This document shows positions 15,829 to 63,950 of a DNA stretch of 64,000 nt, piece by piece. The position numbers were made by a program, and so were the translations under genes. Origin of the DNA: Bacteroidota bacterium (GTDB lineage: Bacteria; Bacteroidota; Bacteroidia; Palsa-948); assembly GCA_016213405.1 (NCBI GenBank), contig JACRAM010000057.1:27773-91772 (forward strand), given 5' to 3'. The notes under the pieces are model-generated. The model was not told where the DNA came from. It made no database searches and saw only the letters and a program-made list of their open reading frames with translations. Numbering within the stretch: the first letter of the stretch is position 1; each line of letters starts with the position of its first letter.

Positions 15829-15853
15829 CCCGTTGGATTTTATCCTACGGGTT
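15829..15853. repeat. 25-nt hairpin motif CCCGTTGGATTTTATCCTACGGGTT (copy 2)
   Basis: 24/25 identical to the copy at 13787-13811. Confidence 0.6.
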
Positions 15854-16772
15854 GGAGATTCACATCCTGAGTGAGGTCGCCTCCTTCGGGAATGTTAAGG
15901 GCTTTGGTGTCGGTGACGAATAATGGTTTTGCAAATTCCATATTGCCGGGTCCCACAAAACCGGTTACAAGTTCAAAGTCGCCATTGGCATCGGTTACTG
16001 CGCTTTCGTTGGTTTCAACCAGGCGCGCGCTCATTCCTGCAAGGGCGGCTGCGGTAACGGCATGGCGCCCTTTTCCGCGGATGGTTGTTTTCACAGTGCT
16101 GACATACACCAATCCCCATTCGCGGGCTTTGTTGCGCTTGCTGGTGATGGGTTCTTCATTAAAAAATGTTTCCACTTCGTCCCAAACTTTCAAAATTATT
16201 TTGTCGGCTTCTTCGCGCTGGTCTTCCACATCTTCCTGCGCGCTGTCATAATTATTTTTTGCCGTGCTCTGCGCAATGTTGGCATTCTTGAAGGCGTTGT
16301 ATTCAAAAGTTACTTCAGCAATAGTGGGCATCGCCATGGGCGCTCCGCCTGCGGCAATGCGCGCGGCATCTCCGTCAATCAATCGCTGCCACCACTGGGT
16401 GAGCAGGGGTTCGGTGCTGATGTCAGGGACGCTGTTTGAGTTCACATCCAACTGGTAAAATGCGCGGTGCGATGGGGGAAACATTCCTCTATCCACTCCA
16501 TTATTAAATGCCTGAATGAAATGCGATACGAACATGCGCGCTCTTGCCTGAGCGGTTTCTTTCACCGTGGTGGAATCGGTTTGCGCCTGAAGTTTGTTTG
16601 CCCGCGCCTGCATCAGCGATGAAAACAGCGGCTGCATGGCATCCAACCGTGTGATAGTGTTTGGAGTAATGGCGATGTTAGCCGGTGCGGTGTTGTCTTT
16701 TTTGGTTTTTGCTCCGCTCAGGGCGATGTTGCGCTTTTCGTCTGAGTCGGGAAGTTTTCTTGTTATGCTCAT
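15840..16772 (-). CDS. Hypothetical protein encoded by a GC-rich (~55% versus ~35% background) gene. The C-terminus resembles a carboxypeptidase-regulatory-like (CarbopepD_reg/Cna-B-like) beta-sandwich.
   Basis: Base composition is strikingly different from its neighbours. C-terminal VTDANGDFELVTGFVGPGNMEFAKP pattern. No signal peptide detected. Confidence 0.45.
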   Translation of the reverse strand: MSITRKLPDSDEKRNIALSGAKTKKDNTAPANIAITPNTITRLDAMQPLFSSLMQARANKLQAQTDSTTVKETAQARARMFVSHFIQAFNNGVDRGMFPPSHRAFYQLDVNSNSVPDISTEPLLTQWWQRLIDGDAARIAAGGAPMAMPTIAEVTFEYNAFKNANIAQSTAKNNYDSAQEDVEDQREEADKIILKVWDEVETFFNEEPITSKRNKAREWGLVYVSTVKTTIRGKGRHAVTAAALAGMSARLVETNESAVTDANGDFELVTGFVGPGNMEFAKPLFVTDTKALNIPEGGDLTQDVNLQPVG

Positions 16773-16826
16773 TGTGATTGATTATTGGTTATTGTTTAGT
16801 GATTATTTATTATTAGTTGTTTTTTT

Positions 16827-17121
16827 GCCTCTCGCATTTGTGCGATACTATGTTTTAAACTTTTTTACGCCTCTCGCATTTATGCGAACTAATGTTTCAA
16901 TCTTTTTTATACCTGTCGCATTTGTGCGAACTCATATTTTGAACTTTTTTATGCCCCTCTCATTTATACGAACCCATGTTTCAAACTTTTTTCTCCCTCT
17001 CGTATTTGTGCGAACCCATACTTCAAACTTTTTTCTACCCTTCGGATTTGTGAAAACCCATCTTTCAAACTTTGTTTTGCCCTTCGGATTTGCGCGAACC
17101 CATGCTTTAAACTTTTTTATG
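16827..17121. repeat. Seven head-to-tail tandem 42-bp repeats (units 42,42,42,42,43,42,42 bp), each with a palindromic core TCGCATTTGTGCGA. Repeats degenerate toward 17121.
   Basis: Direct reading: GCCTCTCGCATTTGTGCGATACTATGTTTTAAACTTTTTTAC / GCCTCTCGCATTTATGCGAACTAATGTTTCAATCTTTTTTAT / ACCTGTCGCATTTGTGCGAACTCATATTTTGAACTTTTTTAT / ... It lies upstream of the start of 15840..16772 (-) and downstream of the XRE gene stop. Confidence 0.9.
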
Positions 17122-17133
17122 CTCATTGTATTC

Positions 17134-43732: not shown

Positions 43733-45997
43733 ATGAAAAAGATTACAATGTTATTCTCATCAGCATTTATTTTCATGAATGTTTTTGCGCAAGACAACGA
43801 TACCATCAATAAAGTCATTCAGTTGAATGAAATGGTGATTTCGGCAAATAAATCAGAAGAAAAAAAATCTGACATACCGCAAACGATCGAAATCATTAAA
43901 AGTAGGGATGTAGAGTTCAATAATCCGCAGACATCAGCTGATATGCTTCAGAGCACGGGAAATGTTTTCGTGCAGAAAAGTCAGGCAGGCGGAGGAAGTC
44001 CGGTGCTGAGGGGTTTTGAAGCGAACAGAGTTTTAATTGTAATTGACGGAATACGAATGAACAATGCTATTTACCGCGCTGGGCATTTGCAGGACGTAAT
44101 CACCGTTGACAACATGATGCTCGATAGAACGGAAGTTCTTTTTGGTCCAGCTTCCGTGATGTACGGGAGCGATGCACTGGGAGGCGTGATGCACTTCTAC
44201 ACAAAAAATCCTGAACTCGTCCGCAAGGACTCCTTCGGAGGAGATACTTCTGGCGTGAATACGAAAATAAATATCGGGCTTCGCTATTCAAGTGCGAACA
44301 GGGAAAACACCGCACATATCAATTTGAATCTTGGATACAAAAAAGTTGCTTTCCTCACCGGCATAACTTCGAGTGATTTTTCTGATTTAAGAAGCGGAAG
44401 TGTCCGTCCGCCATTTGACAAGCCATTCGGCAAGTGCAATTATTATGTGGTGCAATTGGACAGTCTGGATACGCTCATCAGAAACTCTGACCCGAATGTT
44501 CAGCGGTTTTCAGGATACAAACAATTTGACGTGATGCAGAAAATTCTTTTCCGGCAAAACAGCAGTGTTTCTCATCTTGTGAATTTTCAGTATTCCAATT
44601 CATCTGACATTCCGCGCTATGATCGCCTTCAGCAGTTTCAGCCCAACGCGGAACCCGTGTATGCAAAATGGCATTACGGTCCGCAGAAAAGAATTCTCGC
44701 TTCTCTGAAAACAAAAATTCTTTCGGAAGGAAAATTTTTTAATGACATGAACATCATTCTTGCCTGGCAGAATATTGAGCAAGAACGCGTGAGCAGAAAA
44801 TATAAAAAGACGAGCGAGAAAGACCAGCTGGAAAATGTGGGCGTTTATTCCGCGAACATTGATTTCAGAAAAGAGATAAATCCCGTAGGAACTTCTTCCA
44901 ACGGGATAAAAGAAAAACACGAACTGCATTACGGCATTGAAGGAACTTACAACGATGTGCAGTCCTCCGCCACGATGACGGATATTTTTACAAAAGTTGA
45001 AACCGCTACCGCACCTCGCTATCCCGATGGAGGAAGCACAATGATGACTTCCGCCATGTATCTTTCTCACAGCTGGGAGATAAATGAAAAATATATTCTC
45101 ACCGATGGCATTCGGTTTAACTATGTTGATTTGAAATCGCAGTGGAAAGACACCTCACTTTTTCATTTCCCGTTTTCTTCCATTGAACAAAAAAACAATG
45201 CTCTTAATGGGAATATTGGTTTCGTTGCCATGCCGGGATTCGGATGGAGATTCACTCTCCTTGGCTCAAGCGGGTTCCGCGCGCCAAATGTGGATGACAT
45301 GGGAAAAGTGAATGAGTCTGCTCAGGGACAACTCATTGTTCCGAATCCCGTTCTGAAACCCGAGTTCGCTTACAGCAGTGAAGCGGGGATTTCAAAAAAC
45401 TTCAGCGGGAAAGTAAAAATGGAAGCAGTTTATTTCTACACGCTTCTTCAAAATGCTATCGTGGTGAAAGACGATAAGTTTAACGGAGCCGATTCTGTTT
45501 TGTACGATGGCGTGATGAGCAAAGTGCAGTCGGCACAAAACGCAGATGAAGCATACATACAAGGATTTTCTGCAAACTTCATGGCAGACTTTGATGAAAA
45601 TTTTTCTCTGAAGAGTTCGATAAATTACACATACGGAATGTATAAAGACAAAGCAAACGATACGCTTGTTCCGATGGATCACATTCCGCCTGTGTTCGGG
45701 CAGACCACATTAATATATCACTATAAAAGAATTGAAACTGAATTTAACGTTCGATACAACGGATGGAAGCGCCTCGAAGATTACAGTCCGAGCGGAGAAG
45801 ATAATCTGGCACAAGCAACCGCTTATGGAATGCCGGCATGGTACACACTCAATTTTAAAACTGCGTTCGAAATAAATCCGCACATGAAAATCATCGTTGG
45901 AATGGATAATATCCTCGACATGCACTATCGCACTTTTGCTTCAGGCGTGAGCGCTCCCGGAAGAAATTTCATTTTTGCGATAAGAGCCAAACTATAA
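43733..45997 (+). CDS. TonB-dependent outer membrane receptor
   Basis: Signal peptide, plug-domain motifs (...NRVLIVIDGIRMNNA...), about 754 aa beta-barrel. Confidence 0.75.
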   Translation: MKKITMLFSSAFIFMNVFAQDNDTINKVIQLNEMVISANKSEEKKSDIPQTIEIIKSRDVEFNNPQTSADMLQSTGNVFVQKSQAGGGSPVLRGFEANRVLIVIDGIRMNNAIYRAGHLQDVITVDNMMLDRTEVLFGPASVMYGSDALGGVMHFYTKNPELVRKDSFGGDTSGVNTKINIGLRYSSANRENTAHINLNLGYKKVAFLTGITSSDFSDLRSGSVRPPFDKPFGKCNYYVVQLDSLDTLIRNSDPNVQRFSGYKQFDVMQKILFRQNSSVSHLVNFQYSNSSDIPRYDRLQQFQPNAEPVYAKWHYGPQKRILASLKTKILSEGKFFNDMNIILAWQNIEQERVSRKYKKTSEKDQLENVGVYSANIDFRKEINPVGTSSNGIKEKHELHYGIEGTYNDVQSSATMTDIFTKVETATAPRYPDGGSTMMTSAMYLSHSWEINEKYILTDGIRFNYVDLKSQWKDTSLFHFPFSSIEQKNNALNGNIGFVAMPGFGWRFTLLGSSGFRAPNVDDMGKVNESAQGQLIVPNPVLKPEFAYSSEAGISKNFSGKVKMEAVYFYTLLQNAIVVKDDKFNGADSVLYDGVMSKVQSAQNADEAYIQGFSANFMADFDENFSLKSSINYTYGMYKDKANDTLVPMDHIPPVFGQTTLIYHYKRIETEFNVRYNGWKRLEDYSPSGEDNLAQATAYGMPAWYTLNFKTAFEINPHMKIIVGMDNILDMHYRTFASGVSAPGRNFIFAIRAKL

Positions 45998-46086
45998 GAA
46001 GCCCCACCCCTTCCCTCCCCATTAGGGAGGGAGAAAGTAATGCAAGTCCTCCCCAATGGGGAGGATTTAGGAGGGGCTTTTTTATT
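45998..46086. repeat. GC-rich nested-palindrome element (family exemplar). It also functions as a terminator-like structure after the TonB receptor gene.
   Basis: GAAGCCCCACCCCTTCCCTCCCCATTAGGGAGGGAGAAAGTAATGCAAGTCCTCCCCAATGGGGAGGATTTAGGAGGGGCTTTTTTATTTT. Stems CCCTCCCC/GGGAGGG, CCTCCCC/GGGGAGG, GCCCC/GGGGC, then a T-run. Core repeated at 53341-53378 (reverse complement) and 63916-63950. Confidence 0.75.
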
Positions 46087-46092
46087 TTACAT

Positions 46093-46974
46093 TTGTATAT
46101 GTACAACGAACTCATGCTCAACCCAAATTCCCTCAAAGACAAAATCATCATTGTTACTGGAGGAGGAACAGGACTTGGAAAATCAATGGTGAAATGTTTT
46201 CTCCAGCTGGGAGCAAAGGTTGCCATCGCCAGCAGAAAAGAAGATGTGCTAAAAAAAACTGCCGAGGAACTTGCAAAAGAAACAGGCGGAGAAATTCTTC
46301 CAGTAAAATGCGATGTGCGCAATTACGAAGAAGTGGAAGCGATGATGAAAACTGTAATTGAAAAATTCGGAAGCTTTAATGTGCTTGTGAATAATGCCGC
46401 AGGAAATTTCATCAGCCCCACGGAAAGATTATCTCACCGCGCATTTGATACTGTAGTTGATATTGTTCTCAAAGGTTCTTACAACTGCGCGCTCGCTGCC
46501 GGAAAATACTGGATAAAAGAAAAAATAAAAGGAAACGTTCTCAGCACACTTGCCGCGTATGCATTCACGGGTTCAGGATATGTAGTGCCTTCCGCCTGCG
46601 GAAAAGCAGGAGTGCTTGCGCTCACGCAATCGCTCGCAGTGGAATGGGGAAAATTTGGAATTCGTTTGAATGCAGTTACACCCGGACCATTTCCTTCTGA
46701 AGGAGCGTGGTCTCGCTTAATGCCGGGAGAAATGTTTAAAAAGTTTGACCCGGCAAATACCACCGCGCTCGGCAGAATGGGCGAACATCAGGAACTCGCC
46801 AACCTATGCTCTTTTCTTGTTTCTGATTTCTCCTCGTACATCACCGGAGAAAATATTGTGATTGATGCGGGGCAATGGCTCAAAGGCGCAGGGCAATTCA
46901 ACGCGCTCGATATGGTTCCCAAAGAGATGTGGGATACCATTGAACAGCTTACACGCAAAGGAAAATCTTCGTAG
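46093..46974 (+). CDS. SDR-family oxidoreductase (2,4-dienoyl-CoA reductase / trans-2-enoyl-CoA reductase-like)
   Basis: TGGGTGLGKSM NAD(P)-binding motif, NNAAGNF, catalytic region ...YVVPSACGKAG... Confidence 0.8.
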   Translation: MYMYNELMLNPNSLKDKIIIVTGGGTGLGKSMVKCFLQLGAKVAIASRKEDVLKKTAEELAKETGGEILPVKCDVRNYEEVEAMMKTVIEKFGSFNVLVNNAAGNFISPTERLSHRAFDTVVDIVLKGSYNCALAAGKYWIKEKIKGNVLSTLAAYAFTGSGYVVPSACGKAGVLALTQSLAVEWGKFGIRLNAVTPGPFPSEGAWSRLMPGEMFKKFDPANTTALGRMGEHQELANLCSFLVSDFSSYITGENIVIDAGQWLKGAGQFNALDMVPKEMWDTIEQLTRKGKSS

Positions 46975-46976
46975 AA

Positions 46977-47020
46977 CCGCCCCCTCCAGACCTGTCCCGA
47001 TCGTAGCATCGGGAGGGGGA
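46977..47020. repeat. GC-rich palindromic element (CCCCTCC...CCCGATCGTAGCATCGGG...GGGAGGGGG) downstream of the SDR gene
   Basis: Nested palindromes CCCGAT/ATCGGG within CCCCTCC/GGGAGGGG. Intergenic. Confidence 0.5.
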
Positions 47021-48124: not shown

Positions 48125-49330
48125 TCAAAACATTTTTCGGTAACACCGCTTACGCTTGTGCTGAATATGCTCGTAACTCTTCCAGTTGGAAATGGCGTTG
48201 AGGTTGGTTTCAAAAATGCCGGTGGTCTCTATGTGCTTCATCCCCTTGCTCACCATTTCTTTCTGTATCTCTGCCATGAGAACCACACCCGCGCCTGTGT
48301 ACATCACTTCTTTTTTCACGCCTGTGAGCAGTTGGTCCATCACATCCTTGCCTTTGCGTGCCTTGAGGATGTGCAAAAAACCGAACGGGAAAAGTTTTCC
48401 GTTTGCTTTTTGCATGGCTTCGGATAAAGAAGGAAGACCTACGATGAATCCAACCAAAGCCCCCCTTAATCCCCCCGAAAGGGGGAAACTTGCGGATGCT
48501 TTTCCTGTGCTCCCCCCTTTGGGGGGAGGGGCTATTACCATCTTTACAAATTCAGGATTGAGAAGCTTGATATATTTCTCTTTGTAGAACGCCATCATCT
48601 TAGGAGAAAACTCTGAAACGAACGGGAGTTCGCTGAACGCGTCATTAAGTATCTTGAAAATAGTATCGGAATGCGGAAGCAGTTCATTCATTGTTTTAAA
48701 ATGAAGCACTTCTATGCCGTAGCGTTTCTGAATCAGTGCAGCACCGCGGGTTACTTTATCCACGATTCTCGGGTTGACAGTGAGGCGGAACTCGAGCCAG
48801 TCAATTTCTTTTACGTAGCCGAGTTTTTCTAAGTGCCGGTGATAATATTCATGATGATACACCGAACCGATAGATTGCAGATGGTTAAAACCTTCCACCA
48901 ACATTCCCTGCGTATCTAAATTCGCAAAGCCAAGCGGACCGTGAATGCCGATGGCTCCGTTTTCTTTTGCCCATGCTTCAACAGTGGAAATAAGCTTTGC
49001 GATTACTTCTGGAGAACCTGTGGTGAGCGGAGTCGAACCATCAAAGAATTCCAAGCGCGAGAAGCGCGCCATCTTTTCGTCTGTCTTTTTATTGTACTCT
49101 TCATTGATGATGGCTCCGATCCTTCCAACGCACTTGCCGTTCTTATAGGCTAACCAGAACTTTGCCTTGCAGAAATCAAACGCAGGATTTGTTTCCGCGA
49201 AAAGCGATTTCATTTCTCCTGCCTTCAATGGAGGAACCCAAAATTTATTGCCTTTGTAAATGTCAAACGGAAGATTTACAAACTGCTTTGCGTCACTCTT
49301 TGATTTAACTTGCTTTATTTCTATTGACAT
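48125..49330 (-). CDS. Hypothetical protein (possibly GNAT-fold acyltransferase-like) carrying an in-frame GC-rich element insertion
   Basis: No secure motif. The product contains the Pro/Gly-rich segment PPPKGGSTGKASASFPLSGGLRGA encoded by the palindromic element at 48458-48533. Confidence 0.35.
   Translation of the reverse strand: MSIEIKQVKSKSDAKQFVNLPFDIYKGNKFWVPPLKAGEMKSLFAETNPAFDFCKAKFWLAYKNGKCVGRIGAIINEEYNKKTDEKMARFSRLEFFDGSTPLTTGSPEVIAKLISTVEAWAKENGAIGIHGPLGFANLDTQGMLVEGFNHLQSIGSVYHHEYYHRHLEKLGYVKEIDWLEFRLTVNPRIVDKVTRGAALIQKRYGIEVLHFKTMNELLPHSDTIFKILNDAFSELPFVSEFSPKMMAFYKEKYIKLLNPEFVKMVIAPPPKGGSTGKASASFPLSGGLRGALVGFIVGLPSLSEAMQKANGKLFPFGFLHILKARKGKDVMDQLLTGVKKEVMYTGAGVVLMAEIQKEMVSKGMKHIETTGIFETNLNAISNWKSYEHIQHKRKRCYRKMF
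48458..48533. repeat. GC-rich palindromic element inserted in-frame in gene 48125..49330
   Basis: AGCCCCCCTTAATCCCCCCGAAAGGGGGAAACTTGC...CTCCCCCCTTTGGGGGGAGGGGCT. Stems CCCCC/GGGGG and CTCCCCCC/GGGGGGAG. The host reading frame is preserved. Confidence 0.6.
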
Positions 49331-50914: not shown

Positions 50915-51077
50915 TTTTTGGGCGCGTCCCTTCGGGTCACGCTTTCCGCTTCAATCGTTCGCGCAACAGCCACATGTCACTCCTACGGAGTTTAAATATT
51001 TTTTCGGAATGTATTTCTATTAACATATCGCTCCTGCGGAGCGAAGAAAATACAAATGCAAAATTTTATGGCTGTGC

Positions 51078-51180
51078 TTCCCCGTAGGGGAAAATGTTAA
51101 TAGCCCCGACCTTTAGGACGGGGGCAATTGCGCCACCACACAAACTCCCCTCTCCTGTTTTAGGAGAGGGTTTGGGGGTG
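51078..51180. repeat. Cluster of GC-rich hairpins in the efp-downstream intergenic region
   Basis: TTCCCCGTAGGGGAA, GCCCCGACCTTTAGGACGGGGGC, CCCCTCTCCTGTTTTAGGAGAGGGG (perfect 10-bp stem). The same family as the other GC-rich elements. Also TCGCTCCTGCGGAGCGA at 51035-51051. Confidence 0.55.
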
Positions 51181-51205
51181 AGGTCTATTTACTTTTATCT
51201 TTGCA

Positions 51206-52465
51206 TTGATGACCACTCCTTGGATTATAGTTTTAGTAATGCTAGTCCTCTCTGCATTTTTTTCAGGACTTGAAATCGCTTTTCTCACCGCCAACAAATT
51301 ACGGATTGAATTAATGAGCAAGCGAAATATTTTTCCTGCACAGATTCTCTCTTACTTCATAAAAAATTCTTCGCATTACATCAGTACCATGTTGGTAGGA
51401 AATTGCATTTCACTCGTAGTGTTCAGTATCTTCATGGCTCAGATTCTCCAACCGCATTTGATACAATACATTCAGTCTCCGATATTAATTCTTCTGCTAA
51501 CAACCGTTCTCTCCACAATTTTTATTCTTGTCACGGCTGAGTTTCTCCCCAAAAACCTTTTCAGAATAAATCCAAACCGAACGCTTTCCGTGTTTGCCGT
51601 TCCACTAATGCTCGTTTATCTGGCTTTGTTCCCGATCGTTTTCATCACCAATAAAATCGCTCGTTTCATTCTTACTTTTTTTCTCGGAACAAAATTCCCC
51701 GAGAAGAAACTTGCCTTCGGAAGAATTGACCTGCACCATTACATTCAGGAAAGCACTTCGCCAAACGTGGAGAGGAAGGAATTAGAAAACGAAGTGAAGA
51801 TATTTAAACGCGCCATGGGTTTTTCAAAAGTAAAAGCCCGCGACTGCATGATTCCAAGAACAGAAATCGTTGCAGTGAATGTGGAAGATTCGGTGGAAGA
51901 ACTTAAAAAAACTTTTATTGAAACCCGCCTCTCAAAAATTCTTGTCTTCCGCGACAGCGTGGATAATATCATCGGCTATACACACTCGTATGAAATCTTC
52001 AAGAAGCCGGAAAACATTTTATCGGTGCTTCTTCCTGTGATAATTGTTCCCGAATCCATGTCAGCAAACGAAGTGCTCACGCTTTTCATTCAACAACACA
52101 AGAGCGTTGCGCTGGTGGTAGATGAGTTTGGGGGAACATCGGGCATGCTCACGATGGAAGATATCATTGAAGAAATTTTCGGAGAGATCGAGGACGAGCA
52201 CGACAAAGATGAAATGGTGGAGAAGCAAATATCCGAGAATGAATTTGTTTTTTCAGGCCGGCACGAAATTGATTTCCTGAATGAAAAATACAAGTTGAGT
52301 TTACCGCAATCGGATGAATACACTACACTTGCAGGATTAATTCTTCACATCCGTCAGAGCCTTCCGAAAAATAATGAGATTGTGGTGATAAGTCCGTATG
52401 TTTTCAAAATCATCAGTACTTCAGATACTATGATTGAACAGGTTCAAGTGAAAATTCTCGACTAA
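51206..52465 (+). CDS. CNNM/CorC-HlyC family membrane protein (DUF21 + CBS pair + CorC_HlyC; GldE-like)
   Basis: Four N-terminal TM helices, tandem CBS region, C-terminal transporter-associated domain. Similar architecture to gliding motility protein GldE and hemolysin-family proteins. Confidence 0.65.
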   Translation: MMTTPWIIVLVMLVLSAFFSGLEIAFLTANKLRIELMSKRNIFPAQILSYFIKNSSHYISTMLVGNCISLVVFSIFMAQILQPHLIQYIQSPILILLLTTVLSTIFILVTAEFLPKNLFRINPNRTLSVFAVPLMLVYLALFPIVFITNKIARFILTFFLGTKFPEKKLAFGRIDLHHYIQESTSPNVERKELENEVKIFKRAMGFSKVKARDCMIPRTEIVAVNVEDSVEELKKTFIETRLSKILVFRDSVDNIIGYTHSYEIFKKPENILSVLLPVIIVPESMSANEVLTLFIQQHKSVALVVDEFGGTSGMLTMEDIIEEIFGEIEDEHDKDEMVEKQISENEFVFSGRHEIDFLNEKYKLSLPQSDEYTTLAGLILHIRQSLPKNNEIVVISPYVFKIISTSDTMIEQVQVKILD

Positions 52466-52507
52466 AATATTTTTCCAAAACAATCTTTTCATTCCAAACA
52501 GCAGACC

Positions 52508-52654
52508 TATGTTAAAATTACTTCCTCCTAAAAAGAATCTAAGAATAATTCTCTGCTTTTCTTTCCTGATTACTTGTCTTGTATTTTCTTCCTGTCACAC
52601 TCACAGAAAATGCAATGGAAAAAAAGCCATCATGACACCGATGGGACCGATGTA
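52508..52654 (+). CDS. Possible small ORF (48 aa, signal-peptide-like plus Cys) in the 322-nt leader region upstream of lysC
   Basis: MLKLLPPKKNLRIILCFSFLITCLVFSSCHTHRKCNGKKAIMTPMGPM. Not in the ORF track (under 60 aa). Could equally be non-coding leader. Confidence 0.2.
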
Positions 52655-52787
52655 AAAATTGTGATTTCGACCAAAGCGAGCAGTCTCCTCAAGTGAAGCA
52701 GAAATTATAAGAAGATTCTTCGCTTTGCTCAGACTGACAATTTACCTTCATTCGTATATTCGCAAACCTTAATTCGTTATTCGAAAA

Positions 52788-54173
52788 ATGAAAGTTTTAA
52801 AATTCGGTGGGACATCGCTTGGATCGGCAGAACGGATGAAAAATCTTGTTCAGCTTATCGTGAATGATGAGCCAAAGATTGTTGTTCTTTCTGCCATGAG
52901 CGGAACCACCAATGCATTGGTTGAAATCGCAAATGCACTTTACGAAAGAGAAAACAACAAAGCAAAGCAGCTCATTGACGCACTGGAAAAAAAATACGAA
53001 TTAGTTCTGAAAGAACTTTATTCAAAAGAATCTTCGCTTAACAAAGGAAAAGAGCTAGTAAAGAATCATTTTGAGTTTATCCGCTCTTTCACGCTGGATA
53101 TGTTCACCGCGAATGAGGAAAAAGCCATTCTCGCGCAGGGTGAACTTCTTTCCACCGCTATGGAACATTTTTATCTGGAAGAAATCGGGGTTGATTCTGT
53201 TCTGCTTCCTGCACTCAACTTTATGCGTATTGACGAGAACGATGAACCGGATCTGAAATACATTGAAGAGAACTTAAAAGCGGAATTAAAGAAATACCAA
53301 GCCCTACCTAAATCCTCCCCATCGGGGAGGACTTCAGAAAATACTCCCTCCCTAACGGGGAGGGTTGGGGAGGGGCTCTTATTTATCACACAGGGATATA
53401 TCTGCCGAAATGCATTCGGAGAAATTGATAATCTGAAACGTGGCGGAAGCGATTACACTGCAACGCTCATCGGTGCAGCACTTACTGCGGAAGAAATTCA
53501 AATCTGGACAGATATTGACGGCATGCACAACAATGACCCACGCATTGTTGACAAAACTTTTCCCGTCACTGATTTGTCATTTGAAGAAGCGGCAGAGCTT
53601 GCATATTTTGGAGCGAAGATTCTTCATCCTACCTGCGTAATTCCTGCAAAGAAGAGGAATGTTCCTGTTCGATTGCTGAACACAATGGAACCAAATGCAA
53701 AAGGAACGGTCATAACAAAAAAATCCCCGGGCGATAGAATCACGGCAGTTGCAGCCAAAGACGGAATCATCGCCATCAATATTAAATCTGCTCGAATGCT
53801 TTTAGCTTATGGGTTCCTGAGAAGCGTATTTGAAATTTTTGAGCGCTACAAAACTCCGATCGATATGATTACTACTTCGGAGGTAGCAGTATCGGTTACA
53901 ATTGATAACGACAAAAACTTAGAAGCTATTCTGAAAGAGCTGAAAGAATTTTGTTCTGTTGAAACAGATAAAGACCAAACTATTATTTGCATTGTAGGAA
54001 GTTTCACTGCAGAAAAACAAGGTGTAGCAGTAAAAATTTTTGCTGCGCTATCAACTATTCCTCTGAGAATGATTTCGTATGGCGGCAGCGAGAACAATGT
54101 TTCGGTGCTGGTGGAATCAAAATATAAAAAGGATGCGCTGGTTGCGCTTAATAAAGGATTGTTCAACTTATAA
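52788..54173 (+). CDS. lysC: Aspartate kinase (with C-terminal ACT domains) carrying an in-frame GC-rich element insertion
   Basis: MKVLKFGGTSLGSAERM... N-terminus, LKRGGSDYTATLIGAAL, C-terminal ACT repeats. Insert ALPKSSPSGRTSENTPSLTGRVGEGL immediately before the conserved ITQGY strand. Confidence 0.85.
   Translation: MKVLKFGGTSLGSAERMKNLVQLIVNDEPKIVVLSAMSGTTNALVEIANALYERENNKAKQLIDALEKKYELVLKELYSKESSLNKGKELVKNHFEFIRSFTLDMFTANEEKAILAQGELLSTAMEHFYLEEIGVDSVLLPALNFMRIDENDEPDLKYIEENLKAELKKYQALPKSSPSGRTSENTPSLTGRVGEGLLFITQGYICRNAFGEIDNLKRGGSDYTATLIGAALTAEEIQIWTDIDGMHNNDPRIVDKTFPVTDLSFEEAAELAYFGAKILHPTCVIPAKKRNVPVRLLNTMEPNAKGTVITKKSPGDRITAVAAKDGIIAINIKSARMLLAYGFLRSVFEIFERYKTPIDMITTSEVAVSVTIDNDKNLEAILKELKEFCSVETDKDQTIICIVGSFTAEKQGVAVKIFAALSTIPLRMISYGGSENNVSVLVESKYKKDALVALNKGLFNL
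53312..53378. repeat. GC-rich palindromic element inserted in-frame in lysC
   Basis: CCTCCCCATCGGGGAGG plus ACTCCCTCCCTAACGGGGAGGGTTGGGGAGGGGCTC. The second part is the reverse complement of the core at 63916-63950 and 45998-46034. Confidence 0.7.
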
Positions 54174-54181
54174 TGTATTAA

Positions 54182-54729
54182 CCCCATGCTTCAGCATGGG
54201 GGATAAAAACGGAAAACAAAAAGGGCTTTAGCCCTGAATTGAAAACGAGAATGTCATTTGTAAAAATATGGGTGCATGCAGTATGGGGTACTAAAAACCG
54301 TACTCCTGTTCTTTCGAAAGAGATTCGAATGAAATTGTTTCAGCACATAAGAGAAAATGCAAAGGAAAAAGAAATCTATATTGATTTTATTAATGGACAT
54401 CTTGACCATGTTCATTGTTTGCTTGCATTGAATGCCGAAATGAGCATTTCAAAAGCAATTCAATTGCTTAAAGGCGAATCAGCATTCTGGGCAAACAAAA
54501 ATAAATTAACAGAAGCAAAATTAGAGTGGGCAGACGAATACTTCGCTGTTTCCGTCAGCGAATCTTTGATTGACAAAGTCAGAGATTACATAAAAAATCA
54601 GGAACAACATCATGCAAAAATTACATTCATGCAGGAGTATGAAAATTTTATGCAGAAATATGAATTTATAAATCATGGCTAAAGCCCTTTTAATACGATT
54701 ATGATATACTCCACACTTAAGTGCGGAGT
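54182..54729 (+). mobile_element. REP-associated tyrosine transposase (RAYT)-like unit: Y1 HUH transposase gene flanked by small inverted hairpins. Inserted between lysC and lysA.
   Basis: Flanks: CCCCATGCTTCAGCATGGGGG (54182-54202) and AGGGCTTTAGCCCT (54222-54235) upstream; GGCTAAAGCCC (54678-54688) and ACTCCACACTTAAGTGCGGAGT (54708-54729) downstream. Confidence 0.55.
54239..54682 (+). CDS. IS200/IS605-type Y1 (HUH) transposase, REP-associated tyrosine transposase (RAYT)-like
   Basis: MKTRMSFVKIWVHAVWGTKNRTPVLS... and HUH motif in GHLDHVHCLLAL. 147 aa, typical size. Single-domain Y1 transposase. Confidence 0.6.
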   Translation: MKTRMSFVKIWVHAVWGTKNRTPVLSKEIRMKLFQHIRENAKEKEIYIDFINGHLDHVHCLLALNAEMSISKAIQLLKGESAFWANKNKLTEAKLEWADEYFAVSVSESLIDKVRDYIKNQEQHHAKITFMQEYENFMQKYEFINHG

Positions 54730-54738
54730 TAAAACAAA

Positions 54739-55926
54739 ATGTTCAGCAAAGAAACCATACAAAAATTCCAGAGCACTCCTACTCCATTTTATTATTATGA
54801 TTTGGATTTGCTGAATCGTACCATTGAAGCACTGAAAAAAGAATCGGAGAAATATAGCTACCACATTCATTACGCTCTCAAAGCAAATGCGAATGATGAA
54901 ATACTTTCTGTGATTAAAAAATCAGGATTAGGTGCAGACTGCGTGAGCGGAAATGAGGTGAAGAAAGCCAGCGAACACAAGTTTGAAAAAATATTTTTTG
55001 CAGGAGTCGGAAAAAGCGATGAAGAAATAAATACCGCACTGGATTGCAACATTACTTGTTTCAATTGTGAAAGTTTGCAGGAGATTGAAGTAATAAATGA
55101 ACTTGCGAAGAAAAAAAGCAAAATCGCGCAAATCGCTTTCCGCATAAATCCGAATGTGAACGCGAATACGCATAAATACATTACTACAGGATTGGAAGAA
55201 AATAAATTCGGAATTAATATCTGGGAACTGGAAGAAGTGGTGAAGAGAACACAGCAACTGAAGAATATAAAAATTTCAGGAATTCATTTTCACATCGGGT
55301 CGCAGATTACGGATTTGAGCGCATTCAAATCACTTTGCTTGCGCGCGAATGAAATTCAGAGTTGGTTTGTGAGTCACAAGGTTTCATTGGAACATATAAA
55401 TGTCGGAGGCGGTCTAGGTGTGGATTACCACTACCCCGACAAAAATTCAATACCTGATTTTTCTTCTTACTTTGGCTTGTTCAAACAATTTTTAGAACTA
55501 CGCCCGAAACAAATTCTCCATTTTGAAATCGGCAGAGCCATTGTGGCACAATGCGGAAGCTTGATTTCAAAAGTGCTCTATGTAAAAAAAGGAGTGAGCA
55601 CAAGTTTTGTAATTCTTGATGCAGGAATGACAGAATTGATTCGTCCTGCACTGTATCAATCGTATCACAAAATACAGAAGTTAGGAGTTGGGGGTTCGGA
55701 GTTGGGAGCAACAGCCAACTCCTCCGAACTCCACACTCCACACTCCGCACTAATGAAATATGATGTGGTGGGTCCCATCTGCGAATCATCCGACTGTTTT
55801 GGCAAAGCGGTAATGCTTCCTGAAACAAAGCGTGGGGATTTAGTTGCTATCCGTACAACTGGCGCGTACGGTGAAGTAATGGCTTCGCAATATAATTTAA
55901 GAGAGAAGGTGAAGGCATTTTATTAG
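54739..55926 (+). CDS. lysA: Diaminopimelate decarboxylase carrying an in-frame GC-rich element insertion
   Basis: PLP fold-III decarboxylase: ...YHIHYALKANAN..., ...GGGLGVDY..., C-terminal ...ESSDCFGK...GAYG.... Insert LGVGGSELGATANSSELHTPHSA between conserved blocks. Confidence 0.85.
   Translation: MFSKETIQKFQSTPTPFYYYDLDLLNRTIEALKKESEKYSYHIHYALKANANDEILSVIKKSGLGADCVSGNEVKKASEHKFEKIFFAGVGKSDEEINTALDCNITCFNCESLQEIEVINELAKKKSKIAQIAFRINPNVNANTHKYITTGLEENKFGINIWELEEVVKRTQQLKNIKISGIHFHIGSQITDLSAFKSLCLRANEIQSWFVSHKVSLEHINVGGGLGVDYHYPDKNSIPDFSSYFGLFKQFLELRPKQILHFEIGRAIVAQCGSLISKVLYVKKGVSTSFVILDAGMTELIRPALYQSYHKIQKLGVGGSELGATANSSELHTPHSALMKYDVVGPICESSDCFGKAVMLPETKRGDLVAIRTTGAYGEVMASQYNLREKVKAFY
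55684..55750. repeat. GC-rich palindromic element inserted in-frame in lysA
   Basis: GGAGTTGGGGGTTCGGAGTTGGGAGCAACAGCCAACTCCTCCGAACTCCACACTCCACACTCCGCAC. Arms TTCGGAGTTGG / CCAACTCC(TC)CGAA. ACTCCACACT is shared with the hairpin at 54708. Confidence 0.6.
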
Positions 55927-62800: not shown

Positions 62801-63916
62801 ATGGAAAACTTCATTGTATCAGCACGAAAGTATCGTCCTCAGACGTTTGACACCGTTGTCGGGCAGGCGCATATTACGAGCACTTTAATAAATGCTATTA
62901 AAACAAACCACGTTTCCCAGGCGTATTTGTTCTGCGGTCCACGCGGAGTAGGAAAAACTACCTGCGCGCGAATTCTGGCGAAGACAATCAACTGCTTTAA
63001 CCGAACAACAAATATTGAAGCGTGCGATGAATGTGATTCATGCAAATCATTTAATACAGGTAACTCATTAAATATTTTTGAACTTGATGCAGCATCAAAT
63101 AATTCGGTGGAAGATATCCGCAATCTGATTAATCAGGTGAGTTTTGCCCCACAAATCGGAACTCACAAAGTATATATTATTGATGAGGTTCATATGCTTT
63201 CGTCAAATGCGTTCAATGCTTTTCTGAAAACGCTGGAAGAGCCGCCAAAACACGCAATTTTCATTCTGGCGACTACGGAAAAACATAAAATTATTCCTAC
63301 GATACTTTCCCGATGCCAGATCTTTGATTTCAACCGGATAAAGATTGATGATATTGTCGGACATCTTTCAACTATTTCAAAAAAAGAAAAAGTAAAATCC
63401 GAAGAAGAAGCGCTGCACACCATCGCCCAAAAAGTAGATGGGTCCATGCGCGATGCACTGAGTATTTTCGACCAGATGGTTTCGCTGTCGGGAGATGTGA
63501 TTACGTATAAATCGGTCATCGACAATCTCAGCATTCTGGATTATGATTATTATTTCAAGGTGACGGATGCATTGCTGGAAAAAAATACTTCTTCATCGCT
63601 TCTCATCTTCAACGAAATACTGAACAAAGGTTTTGACGGACATCATTTCATCAACGGATTAGCAGAGCATTTGAGAAATCTCTTGGTATGCCGAGATGAA
63701 ATTACGCTACAACTTTTAGAAGTAAGTACGAGCATTCGCGGACTCTACAAAACGCAGAGCAAAAAAACAGAACCTGATTTTCTCCTTCGTTGCCTGAGCA
63801 TTCTCAACAAAGCGGATGTGCAGTACAAAGCCAGCCGAAACCAGCGCTTGTTGGTGGAACTTACACTTCTTCAGTTGTGTTCGCTACAAGGCGCTGAAAA
63901 AAAAAATGATATACTG
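62801..63916 (+). CDS. dnaX: DNA polymerase III subunit gamma/tau, zero-frame product (371 aa, domains I-III). Tau-type extension continues in the -1 frame after an A9 run.
   Basis: MENFIVSARKYRPQTFDTVVGQAHIT...GPRGVGKTT...DEVHML...SRCQIFDF...QRLLVELTLLQLCSLQGAEKKMIY then TGA at 63914-63916. Frame verified at several motifs. This ORF is absent from the supplied track. The -1 frame is open to the window end. Confidence 0.75.
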
Positions 63917-63950
63917 AGCCCCACCCCTGCCCTCCCCGTTAGGGAGGGAG
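63897..63950 (+). other. Candidate recoding site in dnaX: A9 slippery run (63897-63905) followed by GC-rich stem-loop element (63916-63950)
   Basis: GCT GAA AAA AAA ATG ATA TAC TGA in zero frame. After a -1 shift or one extra A: ...KKNDILSPTPALPVREGENKTISSKIVSEVKEEQ. Stem CCCTCCC(63929-63935)/GGGAGGG(63941-63947). Confidence 0.55.

Follow-up and report, generated by a model that had tools for sequence, protein, structure and literature searches.

Several families of short bacterial repeats resemble the sequence described here. Rickettsia palindromic elements (RPEs; Ogata et al. 2000 Science 290:347) are short palindromes dispersed through intergenic regions and, in-frame, through unrelated housekeeping genes whose frames stay open; according to the passages of PMC10969869 and PMC3733652 that deal with them, a large fraction is intragenic and these inserts are thought to sit where the protein fold tolerates them. 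RPEs are reported to measure ~150 bp and belong to AT-rich, obligate intracellular Alphaproteobacteria (PMC10969869). REPs are GC-rich imperfect palindromes, and REPINs are inverted pairs of them, described as extragenic (Bertels and Rainey 2011, PMC3116915; Nunvar et al.). Di Nocera et al. 2013 described REPs of the GTAG/CGTC type, and dimers of them, that lie wholly inside ORFs and encode 20-30 amino acids; these intragenic repeats, which reach their highest numbers in Opitutus terrae and R. conorii and have replication and repair genes among their hosts, were read as neutral inserts in loops or linkers (PMC3733652). Small, non-autonomous miniature transposons (MITEs) that make in-frame fusions, and that can be intragenic and translated, include the QMITEs of Coxiella (PMC5896051) and the ERIC/RU elements (PMC2759123). 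The in-frame insertion of palindromic sequences is a phenomenon already known, best from Rickettsia, and the case in the aspartate kinase gene lysC presented here is a new example of it.

Enzymes of the LysC type are characterised by an amino-acid kinase domain followed by C-terminal ACT domains and by motifs of the KFGGTS and GRGGSD type. The window analysed, a stretch of 64,000 nucleotides from a Bacteroidota metagenome-assembled genome, contains one such gene on the forward strand, within which the first-pass annotation had read an in-frame, GC-rich palindromic insertion devoid of stop codons. The ORF is indeed open over 461 codons and reads ...ELKKYQ-ALPKSSPSGRTSENTPSLTGRVGEGL-LFITQGYICRNAFGEIDNLKRGGSDYTA... 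as quoted there. Its product matches NCBIfam TIGR00657 with 285 bits (cutoff 208.7) and PRK09084 with 380 bits, under the equivalog cutoff of 455, and aligns with the E. coli enzyme AKIII (2J0W) at E=2e-59 (phmmer), AKIII showing a gap of 17 columns at the insert. The motifs KFGGTS, RGGSDYTA, WTDIDG, and FGAKILHP are all conserved, and PF00696 and PF22468 are found in the orthologues. In the AlphaFold model (mean pLDDT 81.7), the protein resembles 2J0W and 3C1N with Foldseek TM scores of 0.72-0.79. The host is an aspartate kinase of the lysine-sensitive AKIII type, likely an ordinary enzyme merely loaded with a passenger. The gene and the parts of its insert are as follows:

52788..54173, + strand: lysC, intact, encoding an aspartate kinase of 461 aa, host of the insert (ORF translation, TIGR00657, PRK09084, 2J0W match, predicted aspartokinase fold).
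53298..53378, + strand: 27 codons (171-197 of the gene, 81 nt, QALPKSSPSGRTSENTPSLTGRVGEGL) replacing the 4 codons (TCC/CCC GGC AAG AAA) of empty sites (codon comparison with the empty alleles L031 and L033 and the occupied alleles L032 and L113-L116; survey of 119 orthologues).
53299..53377, - strand (family orientation): 79-nt palindromic element core, with two hairpins set between terminal inverted repeats (family profile in nhmmer: 75 bits, E=3e-21).
53299..53308, + strand: left terminal inverted repeat AAGCCCTACC, pairing with 53368-53377 in DNA and RNA folds.
53313..53331, + strand: hairpin TCCTCCCC-ATC-GGGGAGGA (hairpin scans, DNA fold, covariation).
53346..53364, + strand: hairpin CCCTCCC-TAACG-GGGAGGG (hairpin scans, DNA fold, covariation).
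53367..53377, + strand: right terminal inverted repeat GGGGAGGGGCT, then CTCTTATTTA (DNA fold; included in a sense-strand terminator-like match).

The insertion of a palindromic element, as first read, is supported by these data, with two corrections. The start had been placed at 53312 and the left terminal repeat overlooked; the core is 79 nt long and begins at 53299; and the 26 residues thought to be added are 27 codons that substitute for four, a net gain of 23. The insert has 59% GC against 40% in the remainder of lysC, its ends read AAGCCCC...GGGGCTT, and its junctions are TAC C|element|C TTA, compared with TAT TCC GGC AAG AAA TTA at an empty site. The DNA fold of this copy has a z of -2.6, and the copy is open in two of six reading frames (four of six for the near-consensus intergenic copy). 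An intein, intron or other removable sequence was rejected, as 81 nt leave no room for a splicing domain and the sequence is homologous to intergenic repeats. It is hardly credible that the repeat was joined to lysC by a chimeric assembly or by binning: the window does come from a metagenome-assembled genome, and assemblies classically go wrong at repeats, but a 3783-nt contig of the independent Logan assembly of run SRR12113407, produced by a second assembler, is 100% identical to positions 51823-55605 of the window, insert included, and comparable in-frame inserts occur at the same lysC codon in independent datasets from other sites.

Further copies are present in the window, which lists:

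45999..46079, + strand: full-length intergenic copy, then TTTTTTATTTT, with a TonB-receptor-like ORF stopping at 45997 on one side and an SDR gene starting at 46093 on the other (nhmmer 86 bits).
48459..48535, - strand: variant copy that shares this architecture and lies in-frame within a GNAT/YghO-like ORF (48125-49330, minus), encoding IAPPPKGGSTGKASASFPLSGGLRGA instead of KMKGE.
63916..63950, + strand: half copy (one hairpin with its terminal repeat), in-frame in the linker that follows domain III of dnaX, encoding SPTPALPVREGE.
51148..51190, - strand: intergenic half-element variant CCCTCTCC...GGAGAGGG, then TTTGGGGGTGAGGT, tentatively placed in the family by its architecture alone, with no score against the family profile.

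The reverse-complement kinship claimed between the lysC insert and the cores at 45998 and 63916 holds: complementarity is 91% between 53344-53378 and 63916-63950, 88% between 53344-53377 and 46000-46033, and 92% between 53299-53334 and 46044-46079. The lysC copy is 83% identical to the intergenic copy 45999-46079, which has a DNA fold of -23.8 kcal/mol (z -4.0) and 35-nt arms (45996-46030 and 46048-46082) that are 77% complementary. The hairpin core has ten matches in the window, with 0.02 expected from shuffles; the elements escape a GC-window scan (>=68% GC in 40 nt) and were found by hairpin-based scans. Beyond the window, two other groundwater Bacteroidota genomes (the MAG JACRAL01 and L025 of nzgw125) contain nine copies of this subfamily at unrelated loci, to which the lysC copy is 76-84% identical, and at least 20 copies of the element occur in the ~0.9 Mb of sequence examined. 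About nine of the 20 sampled copies lie deep within long ORFs, with Pfam domains spanning the insert. Outside the window, these hosts are PriA, MeaB, a Mur ligase-alanine racemase (MurF-Alr), CinA, an enoyl-CoA hydratase, and LpxK; inside it, dnaX and the GNAT-like gene accompany lysC.

What the copies have in common is base pairing. Across 19 copies, the hairpin at 53313-53331 is paired in 92.8% of cells, with compensatory changes at six of eight pairs, that at 53346-53364 in 85.5%, with seven of eight, and the terminal helix of 7-9 bp in 74.5%; compensatory changes affect 13 of the 16 hairpin pairs in total, and none of 500 shuffles matched the observed values. The repeat unit can be written GCCCCACCCC-NN-CCCTCCCC-RTTA-GGGAGGGAG, and the unit GCCCCACCCC-NN-CCCTCCCCRTTAGGGAGGGAG recurs with hardly a letter changed in groundwater Bacteroidota as well as in Prevotella, Bacteroidaceae, Saprospiraceae, Chitinophagaceae, and Fibrella, in many of these lineages in-frame within genes. 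An Rfam search gave nothing at gathering thresholds; the weak matches to mir-188 and mir-500 (17-35 bits against cutoffs of 72-78) were rejected as chance resemblance of a long GC hairpin.

With RPEs, as these are described, the family shares the presence of a palindromic repeat in-frame in functional housekeeping ORFs at permissive sites. It differs from them in its length of 79 nt, its 57-59% GC in a 40% GC genome, its two discrete hairpins, and its hosts, which are apparently free-living groundwater Bacteroidota. The likeness to the REP/REPIN-RAYT system lies in the GC-rich imperfect palindromic unit with two hairpins of 7-8 bp, the folding of two inverted units into one long hairpin as in REPINs, the occurrence as singlets and doublets, the lack of target duplication, and the compensatory changes in the hairpins. 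REPINs are described as extragenic, whereas about half of the sampled copies are intragenic, as noted above; moreover, no RAYT flanked by the element was found in the ~0.9 Mb examined, and the REP unit of the element is conserved across distant Bacteroidota families. The dimers of 26-27 residues, with PriA and dnaX among their hosts, are a close fit to the intragenic dimers of Di Nocera et al., although the element ends carry no GTAG or CGTC tetranucleotide as in those super-families. Like MITEs, the element is small, non-coding, and multi-copy, with terminal inverted repeats, and it is sometimes intragenic. Bacterial MITEs that give rise to in-frame fusions also include the Correia elements of Neisseria. 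MITEs usually measure 100-170 bp and have target-site duplications and a recognisable parent IS, whereas our element has 79 nt and no parent element was seen in the sequence examined. The architecture looks like that of a REPIN or of a miniature transposon, in which short terminal inverted repeats enclose two inverted REP-like GC hairpins.

No target-site duplication was seen beside any of 20 copies, just an A-rich left and a T-rich right flank; instead, 10-15 nt of the target were removed in the lysC and GNAT events. As a possible mover we put forward, as a guess held with fairly low confidence, a single-strand-DNA HUH/Y1 (RAYT-like) transposase, because the ends are hairpins and target duplication is lacking. 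A Y1 transposase gene does stand beside lysC (54239-54682), scoring 72.7 bits against IS200 (cutoff 55) and 21.9 bits against RAYT (cutoff 80). As a mobiliser it was rejected, since it has flanking repeats of its own at its two ends only, unrelated to the element, and a tblastn search with it found no Y1 transposase near any copy in the ~0.9 Mb examined. The element motif was likewise absent from the viral contigs and phage records searched, which gave no sign of a phage vector.

The history of the site can be read by comparing lysC alleles. Among 119 close orthologues (73-92% identical), about 105 have just a four-residue turn, S/P-G-K-K, at the insert site, in keeping with the gap that the first-pass annotation had expected; this includes P0005, the closest insert-free orthologue, at 92% identity. 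Where orthologues carry additional segments there, the DNA is palindromic, rich in GC and of this element's type, not the AT-rich homologous sequence that would have spoken against an insertion. The extra length ranges from 6 to 31 residues and the peptides have little sequence in common between lineages, the window and its near relative P0001 sharing 8 of 27 residues (the inserts of P0001, P0003, P0007, and P0010 were compared as protein only). A search for LysC in metagenome contigs returned 80 loci, L033 alone being closely related (87% identical, with an empty site); the others, at 58-72%, are uninformative on junctions.

Some features of these alleles would suit a single ancient insertion into the lysC of this clade's ancestor, passed on vertically with its palindrome kept by gene conversion from other copies or by compensation, most lineages having since lost it or exchanged it for an empty allele through recombination. 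The window, L032, L113, and L114 agree in their left junction (Tyr/His codon, one base, AAGCCCC), the lysC copies all have one orientation, and between the window and L032 the right junction is identical too, with the same turn missing. The left junction shared by most lysC alleles could reflect such an event or some targeting mechanism. Yet the insert-bearing alleles are scattered over the tree of roughly 75 lineages, each beside an empty S/P-G-K-K allele, and deletion without a template cannot rebuild this turn, so that the empty sister alleles count against ancient insertion. The right junction also varies by lineage (the window and L032 lack GKK, which L115 retains as GKR), and the window copy is nearer to copies at unrelated loci (82-84% identical) than to lysC copies at the same position (57-67%). 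Sliding-window DNA identity along lysC gave no clear signal of a recombination block around the insert. In the GNAT-like gene (orthologue baseline 372 aa), inserts occupy the same loop in 7 of 55 orthologues, the window copy being oriented opposite to the others and encoding an unrelated peptide. With these observations, a single ancient event is rather unlikely. The alleles fit repeated insertion into a permissive lysC loop filtered by selection, and insertion hot-spot loops re-used across lineages are found in lysC, lysA, and the GNAT-like gene.

We consider it very probable that a dispersed, non-coding palindromic repeat of ~79 nt has left one of its copies in a permissive turn of lysC, where it is tolerated as a passenger loop. 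Of this reading, the data show the family membership, the empty sites of orthologues, the conserved hairpins, the intact host ORF and the modelled loop position; that the element moves, and that the insert is translated and neutral, is inferred. The element would have entered between a helix and the ITQGY strand, and the frame would have been kept by the gain of 79 nt plus two junction bases and the loss of the 12-nt turn, the net change being a multiple of three. lysC would have stayed open because the element is rich in C and G and has few stop codons, and because of this length change. Selection would purge insertions at non-permissive positions, and different lineages would carry different copies in the same loop because of this removal. 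The insertion was not clean, ~10 nt of the target turn being missing.

Most likely, transcription and translation run through the insert and give a disordered surface loop, rich in Pro, Ser and Gly and tolerated by the enzyme, presumably a neutral or slightly costly passenger and no functional module. The structural model agrees with the loop predicted by the first-pass annotation: residues 174-195 form a coil without secondary structure, at pLDDT <50, between helix 156-171 and strand 198-202. One may ask whether the peptide has instead been recruited as a flexible regulatory or interaction loop under selection, considering that the ORF is open and that inserts persist at the site in several lineages. 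What is conserved, however, is DNA base pairing, not amino acids: the little-shared peptides, their variable length, the opposite orientations with unrelated peptides in the GNAT-like gene, the low-confidence coil, and the absence of the insert from most orthologues all argue against recruitment, which we regard as most unlikely.

A role at the level of nucleic acid is suggested by the sense RNA, which can fold into one long hairpin (-46.7 kcal/mol, z -4.2) with CUCUUAUUUAUC directly after it. A scan of 11 kb for terminator-like matches lists the insert at the top, and the intergenic copy 45999-46079 has a stop codon immediately before it and a T-run behind it, in a terminator-like arrangement. 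An intragenic attenuator, pause site or mRNA-stability hairpin could in this way tune lysC and the downstream lysA. But a consensus match is no proof of function, a strong terminator inside lysC would be harmful if the gene is needed, as we assume, the T-rich tail consists of Leu-Phe-Ile codons also present in empty alleles, and the family occurs in many unrelated genes in either orientation. Such a dedicated role appears very unlikely, although the very stable sense-strand hairpin and U-rich run brought by the insert may affect lysC expression.

The lysC insert extends a behaviour so far known mostly from Rickettsia, with scattered cases elsewhere, namely the in-frame colonisation of housekeeping genes, to groundwater Bacteroidota, and its repeat unit is also present in gut and soil relatives. 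It is distinctly unlikely, but worth stating, that the element is phylum-wide and still active, with a conserved partner enzyme and a preference for entering, or replacing, short A/T-flanked turns of housekeeping genes; if true, it would be a general engine adding disordered loops to the proteins of free-living bacteria, and targeting, beyond selection alone, would account for the common junctions. The element also calls for caution in the annotation and alignment-based phylogeny of these Bacteroidota genomes. The re-used loops show, as a map drawn by nature, where well-studied enzymes tolerate insertions, and the set of occupied and empty alleles provides material for the mechanism of REP-like mobility outside Proteobacteria.

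The aspartate kinase gene lysC carries, in frame, one copy of a 79-nt GC-rich palindromic element with terminal inverted repeats and two hairpins. This copy and the related features lie in the window as follows:

52788-54173, + strand: lysC, aspartate kinase, one open reading frame of 461 codons
53299-53377, + strand as read: 79-nt element copy in lysC
45999-46079: full intergenic copy, immediately 3' of a stop codon and just ahead of a T-run
48459-48535: variant copy, in frame in a GNAT/YghO-like gene, 26 residues in place of KMKGE
63916-63950: half copy, in frame in the dnaX linker
54239-54682: IS200-like Y1 transposase gene, between lysC and lysA, immediately 3' of lysC

Read on the + strand, the lysC copy consists of AAGCCCTACC, TAAA, a hairpin TCCTCCCC-ATC-GGGGAGGA, a 14-nt spacer, a second hairpin CCCTCCC-TAACG-GGGAGGG, TT, and GGGGAGGGGCT. 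The first-pass annotation, which quoted the insert peptide correctly from the reading frame, started the element at 53312 and thereby missed the left terminal repeat. It had also described the insert as the reverse complement of the copies at 45998 and 63916, and the repeat finder bears this out, with complementarity of 92% (53299-53334 and 46044-46079), 91% (53344-53378 and 63916-63950), and 88% (53344-53377 and 46000-46033). The hairpin core has 10 matches in the window versus 0.02 in shuffled sequences, and the element reaches 59% GC, against 40% in the remainder of lysC. As single-stranded DNA it is predicted to fold into a terminal stem closing the two hairpins (-19.4 kcal/mol, z -2.6), and its sense RNA could form one long hairpin (-46.7 kcal/mol, z -4.2). 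The insert is not an assembly artefact: the identical 461-aa LysC occurs on a Logan contig from run SRR12113407, produced by a separate pipeline, which matches window positions 51823-55605 at 100% identity over 3783 nt, and the GNAT-like neighbour protein is 100% identical to the NCBI MAG protein HY841_06890.

Thousands of aspartate kinases were retrieved from 5.8 billion proteins, and the best 119 (73-92% identical) were compared with LysC. About 105 of these 119 have only a four-residue turn at the insert site, typically S/P-G-K-K between ELKKY and LFITQGY, and measure 436-438 aa. The gap predicted in orthologues by the first-pass annotation is thus present, though its size is not the anticipated 26 or so residues, since 27 codons replace four for a net gain of 23. 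Empty sites read AAA AAA TAT TCC GGC AAG AAA TTA TTC (loci L031 and L033) and the window gene AAG AAA TAC C/AAGCCC...GGGGCT/C TTA TTT; as the original turn has lost ~10 nt, this was not a clean insertion.

LysC matches TIGR00657 well above the cutoff (285 versus 208.7 bits), and lysine-sensitive aspartokinase 3 is its top equivalog, the 380 bits falling below the strict cutoff of 455. It aligns over its full length with E. coli AKIII (2J0W; phmmer, E=2e-59), with a 17-column gap on the E. coli side exactly at the insert peptide, and all the catalytic signatures KFGGTS, RGGSDYTA, WTDIDG, and FGAKILHP are found. An AlphaFold2 model built with 46 orthologues as input (mean pLDDT 81.7, pTM 0.76) is closest to aspartokinases (2J0W, TM 0.72; 3C1N, TM 0.79). 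Between helix 156-171 and strand 198-202, residues 174-195 form no secondary structure and score below 50 in pLDDT, so that in the model the insert is a disordered excursion from the turn, in line with the surface loop that the first-pass annotation had proposed to look for. The enzyme itself is most likely normal, with a putatively translated passenger loop.

The element belongs to a wider family. Its 21-mer CCCTCCCCRTTAGGGAGGGAG occurs at 30 loci in GTDB (one genome per species), ten in the groundwater Bacteroidota MAG JACRAL01 (39% GC) and two in another, nzgw125, the others being in Prevotella, Bacteroidaceae, Bacteroidales, Saprospiraceae, Chitinophagaceae, Fibrella, and one alphaproteobacterial MAG. 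GCCCC(A/T)CCCC precedes it at nearly all loci, and in JACRAL01 and nzgw125 it usually continues into a spacer, then a second hairpin (either TCCTCCCC-AAT-GGGGAGGA or, with compensated stems, TCCTTCCC-AAA-GGGAAGGA), and finally TTTAGGAGGGGCT, an arrangement identical to the 79-nt doublet of the window. The lysC copy scores 75 bits against a profile of the groundwater-MAG copies, equal to the level of intergenic copies, and is 76-84% identical to nine copies of the same subfamily at unrelated loci in these two MAGs. In an alignment of 19 copies, divergent ones included, 85.5% and 92.8% of cells in the two hairpins are paired and 13 of the 16 hairpin pairs have changes on both sides, values reached by none of 500 shuffles; sliding the partners by 1-3 columns lowers pairing to 50-64%. 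What is maintained is the palindromic structure rather than the exact sequence. Element flanks are A-rich on the left and T-rich on the right, with no target-site duplication. Some copies in other genomes (L010 7683-7784, L022 7205-7302, and L024 2864-2978) are interrupted by 20-35 nt of extra sequence, sometimes a small hairpin nested within the second hairpin.

Approximately nine of the ~20 full-length copies in the window, JACRAL01, and nzgw125 lie deep inside long reading frames, with hosts including PriA, MeaB, a Mur ligase-alanine racemase fusion, CinA, enoyl-CoA hydratase, and LpxK, whose Pfam domain matches run across the inserts. In a Prevotella MAG (L028 7618-7725), two inverted repeat units starting 69 nt apart are in frame in an ORF bearing a B12-binding (methionine-synthase-like) motif, which extends the in-frame habit to gut Bacteroidota. 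Four of six reading frames are open in the near-consensus intergenic copy and two of six in the lysC copy, so that surviving in-frame copies are expected once selection purges frame-breaking events.

The same loops have been re-used. Seven other LysC orthologues (P0001, P0002, P0003, P0004, P0010, P0029, and P0050) have full-length inserts at this site and at least five more have short ones; in a neighbour-joining tree computed without the insert columns, occupied alleles are scattered, each with an empty close neighbour. All five occupied orthologue alleles with available DNA contain this type of element, oriented as in the window gene but with different hairpin sequences, rather than the AT-rich homologous segment that the first-pass annotation named as counter-evidence. 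The window copy is 57-67% identical to these positional counterparts versus 82-84% to copies at unrelated loci, and the right junction varies, the ancestral GKK being gone in the window and L032 and kept as GKR in L115. The left junction, shared within lysC, would also fit a single ancient insertion plus recombination, or some target preference of the element; a sliding-window comparison along lysC gave no clear recombination signal around the insert. In the GNAT-like gene, seven of 55 orthologues have inserts in the same loop, and the window copy, being oppositely oriented to theirs, can only be an independent event. Repeated insertion is the simplest explanation, selection having spared hits in permissive loops only. 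lysA (54739-55926, +) contains a different palindromic insert at 55680-55750, a long hairpin GGAGTTGGGGGTTCGGAGTTGG...CCAACTCCTCCGAACTCC (DNA fold z -3.7) adding 14 residues in frame relative to L031; this loop, after HKIENL, has variable inserts in five of the seven orthologues compared and is a hot spot comparable to that of lysC.

Other variable sites occur in the same proteins. GC-hairpin-like inserts such as SPPYKGGRGGF are found at a second lysC site (~residues 78-85) in one orthologue subclade (P0042, P0046, P0051, and P0054), the window gene being empty there. In addition to the full element, the GNAT/YghO-like protein (48125-49330, -) gains a short stretch, GSTPLTTG, at another variable site near residue 98; a few alignment columns further downstream, at a neighbouring variable site, P0123 and P0152 carry full-length inserts.

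The window also holds other repeats. Three intergenic GC-rich hairpins lie upstream of a CNNM/CorC gene (51060-51190), the last (51148-51190) built like a half-element, with stems of CCTCTCC/GGAGAGG and a tail of GGGGGTGAGG. A GC-rich palindrome, CCCCCTCC...CCCGATCGTAGCATCGGGAGGGGG (46977-47020), directly 3' of an SDR gene stop, is terminator-like or of another repeat type. A tandem array at 16778-17122, in which a 42-nt unit recurs ~6-8 times at 66-84% identity to the reference copy, begins 6 nt upstream of the start of a minus-strand ORF (15840-16772) and is not CRISPR-like, since the entire unit is repeated. Several direct repeats spaced exactly 819 nt apart (883-2115; 71-82% identical) suggest tandem duplication of a gene or domain.

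The Y1 transposase next to lysC (Pfam Y1_Tnp, 96 bits; NCBIfam IS200, 72.7 bits, and RAYT, 21.9 bits) has its own 27-nt inverted repeats (54219-54245 and 54665-54691, 85% complementary), which are unrelated to the element and confined to these two places in the window. In related lineages the spacer between lysC and lysA is either empty or holds a DUF559 endonuclease-like gene, and these differing contents mark the spacer itself as an insertion hot spot. In ~0.9 Mb examined, no Y1 transposase was found near any other element copy, and the motif was absent from the viral contigs and phage records searched. Single-strand HUH transposases use hairpin ends without target duplication, and the element resembles their substrates in this respect.

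No Rfam family matches the element, and no description of this Bacteroidota family was found in the full-text papers searched, an incomplete set that makes this weak evidence of novelty. Lying in frame within housekeeping genes is characteristic of the Rickettsia palindromic elements (PMC10969869, PMC3733652), from which our element differs in length, composition, and host. It matches the intragenic REPs described by Di Nocera et al. (PMC3733652), in which REPs or REP dimers located within ORFs of Opitutus terrae, R. conorii, and others contribute 20-30 residues, have replication and repair genes among their hosts, and are interpreted as neutral loop inserts, although it lacks the GTAG or CGTC tags defining their two super-families. 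The insertion noticed in the first-pass annotation is confirmed and its interpretation supported; the interest of the family lies in a repeat unit conserved across the phylum, in the re-use of the same loops, and in junctions that are not clean.
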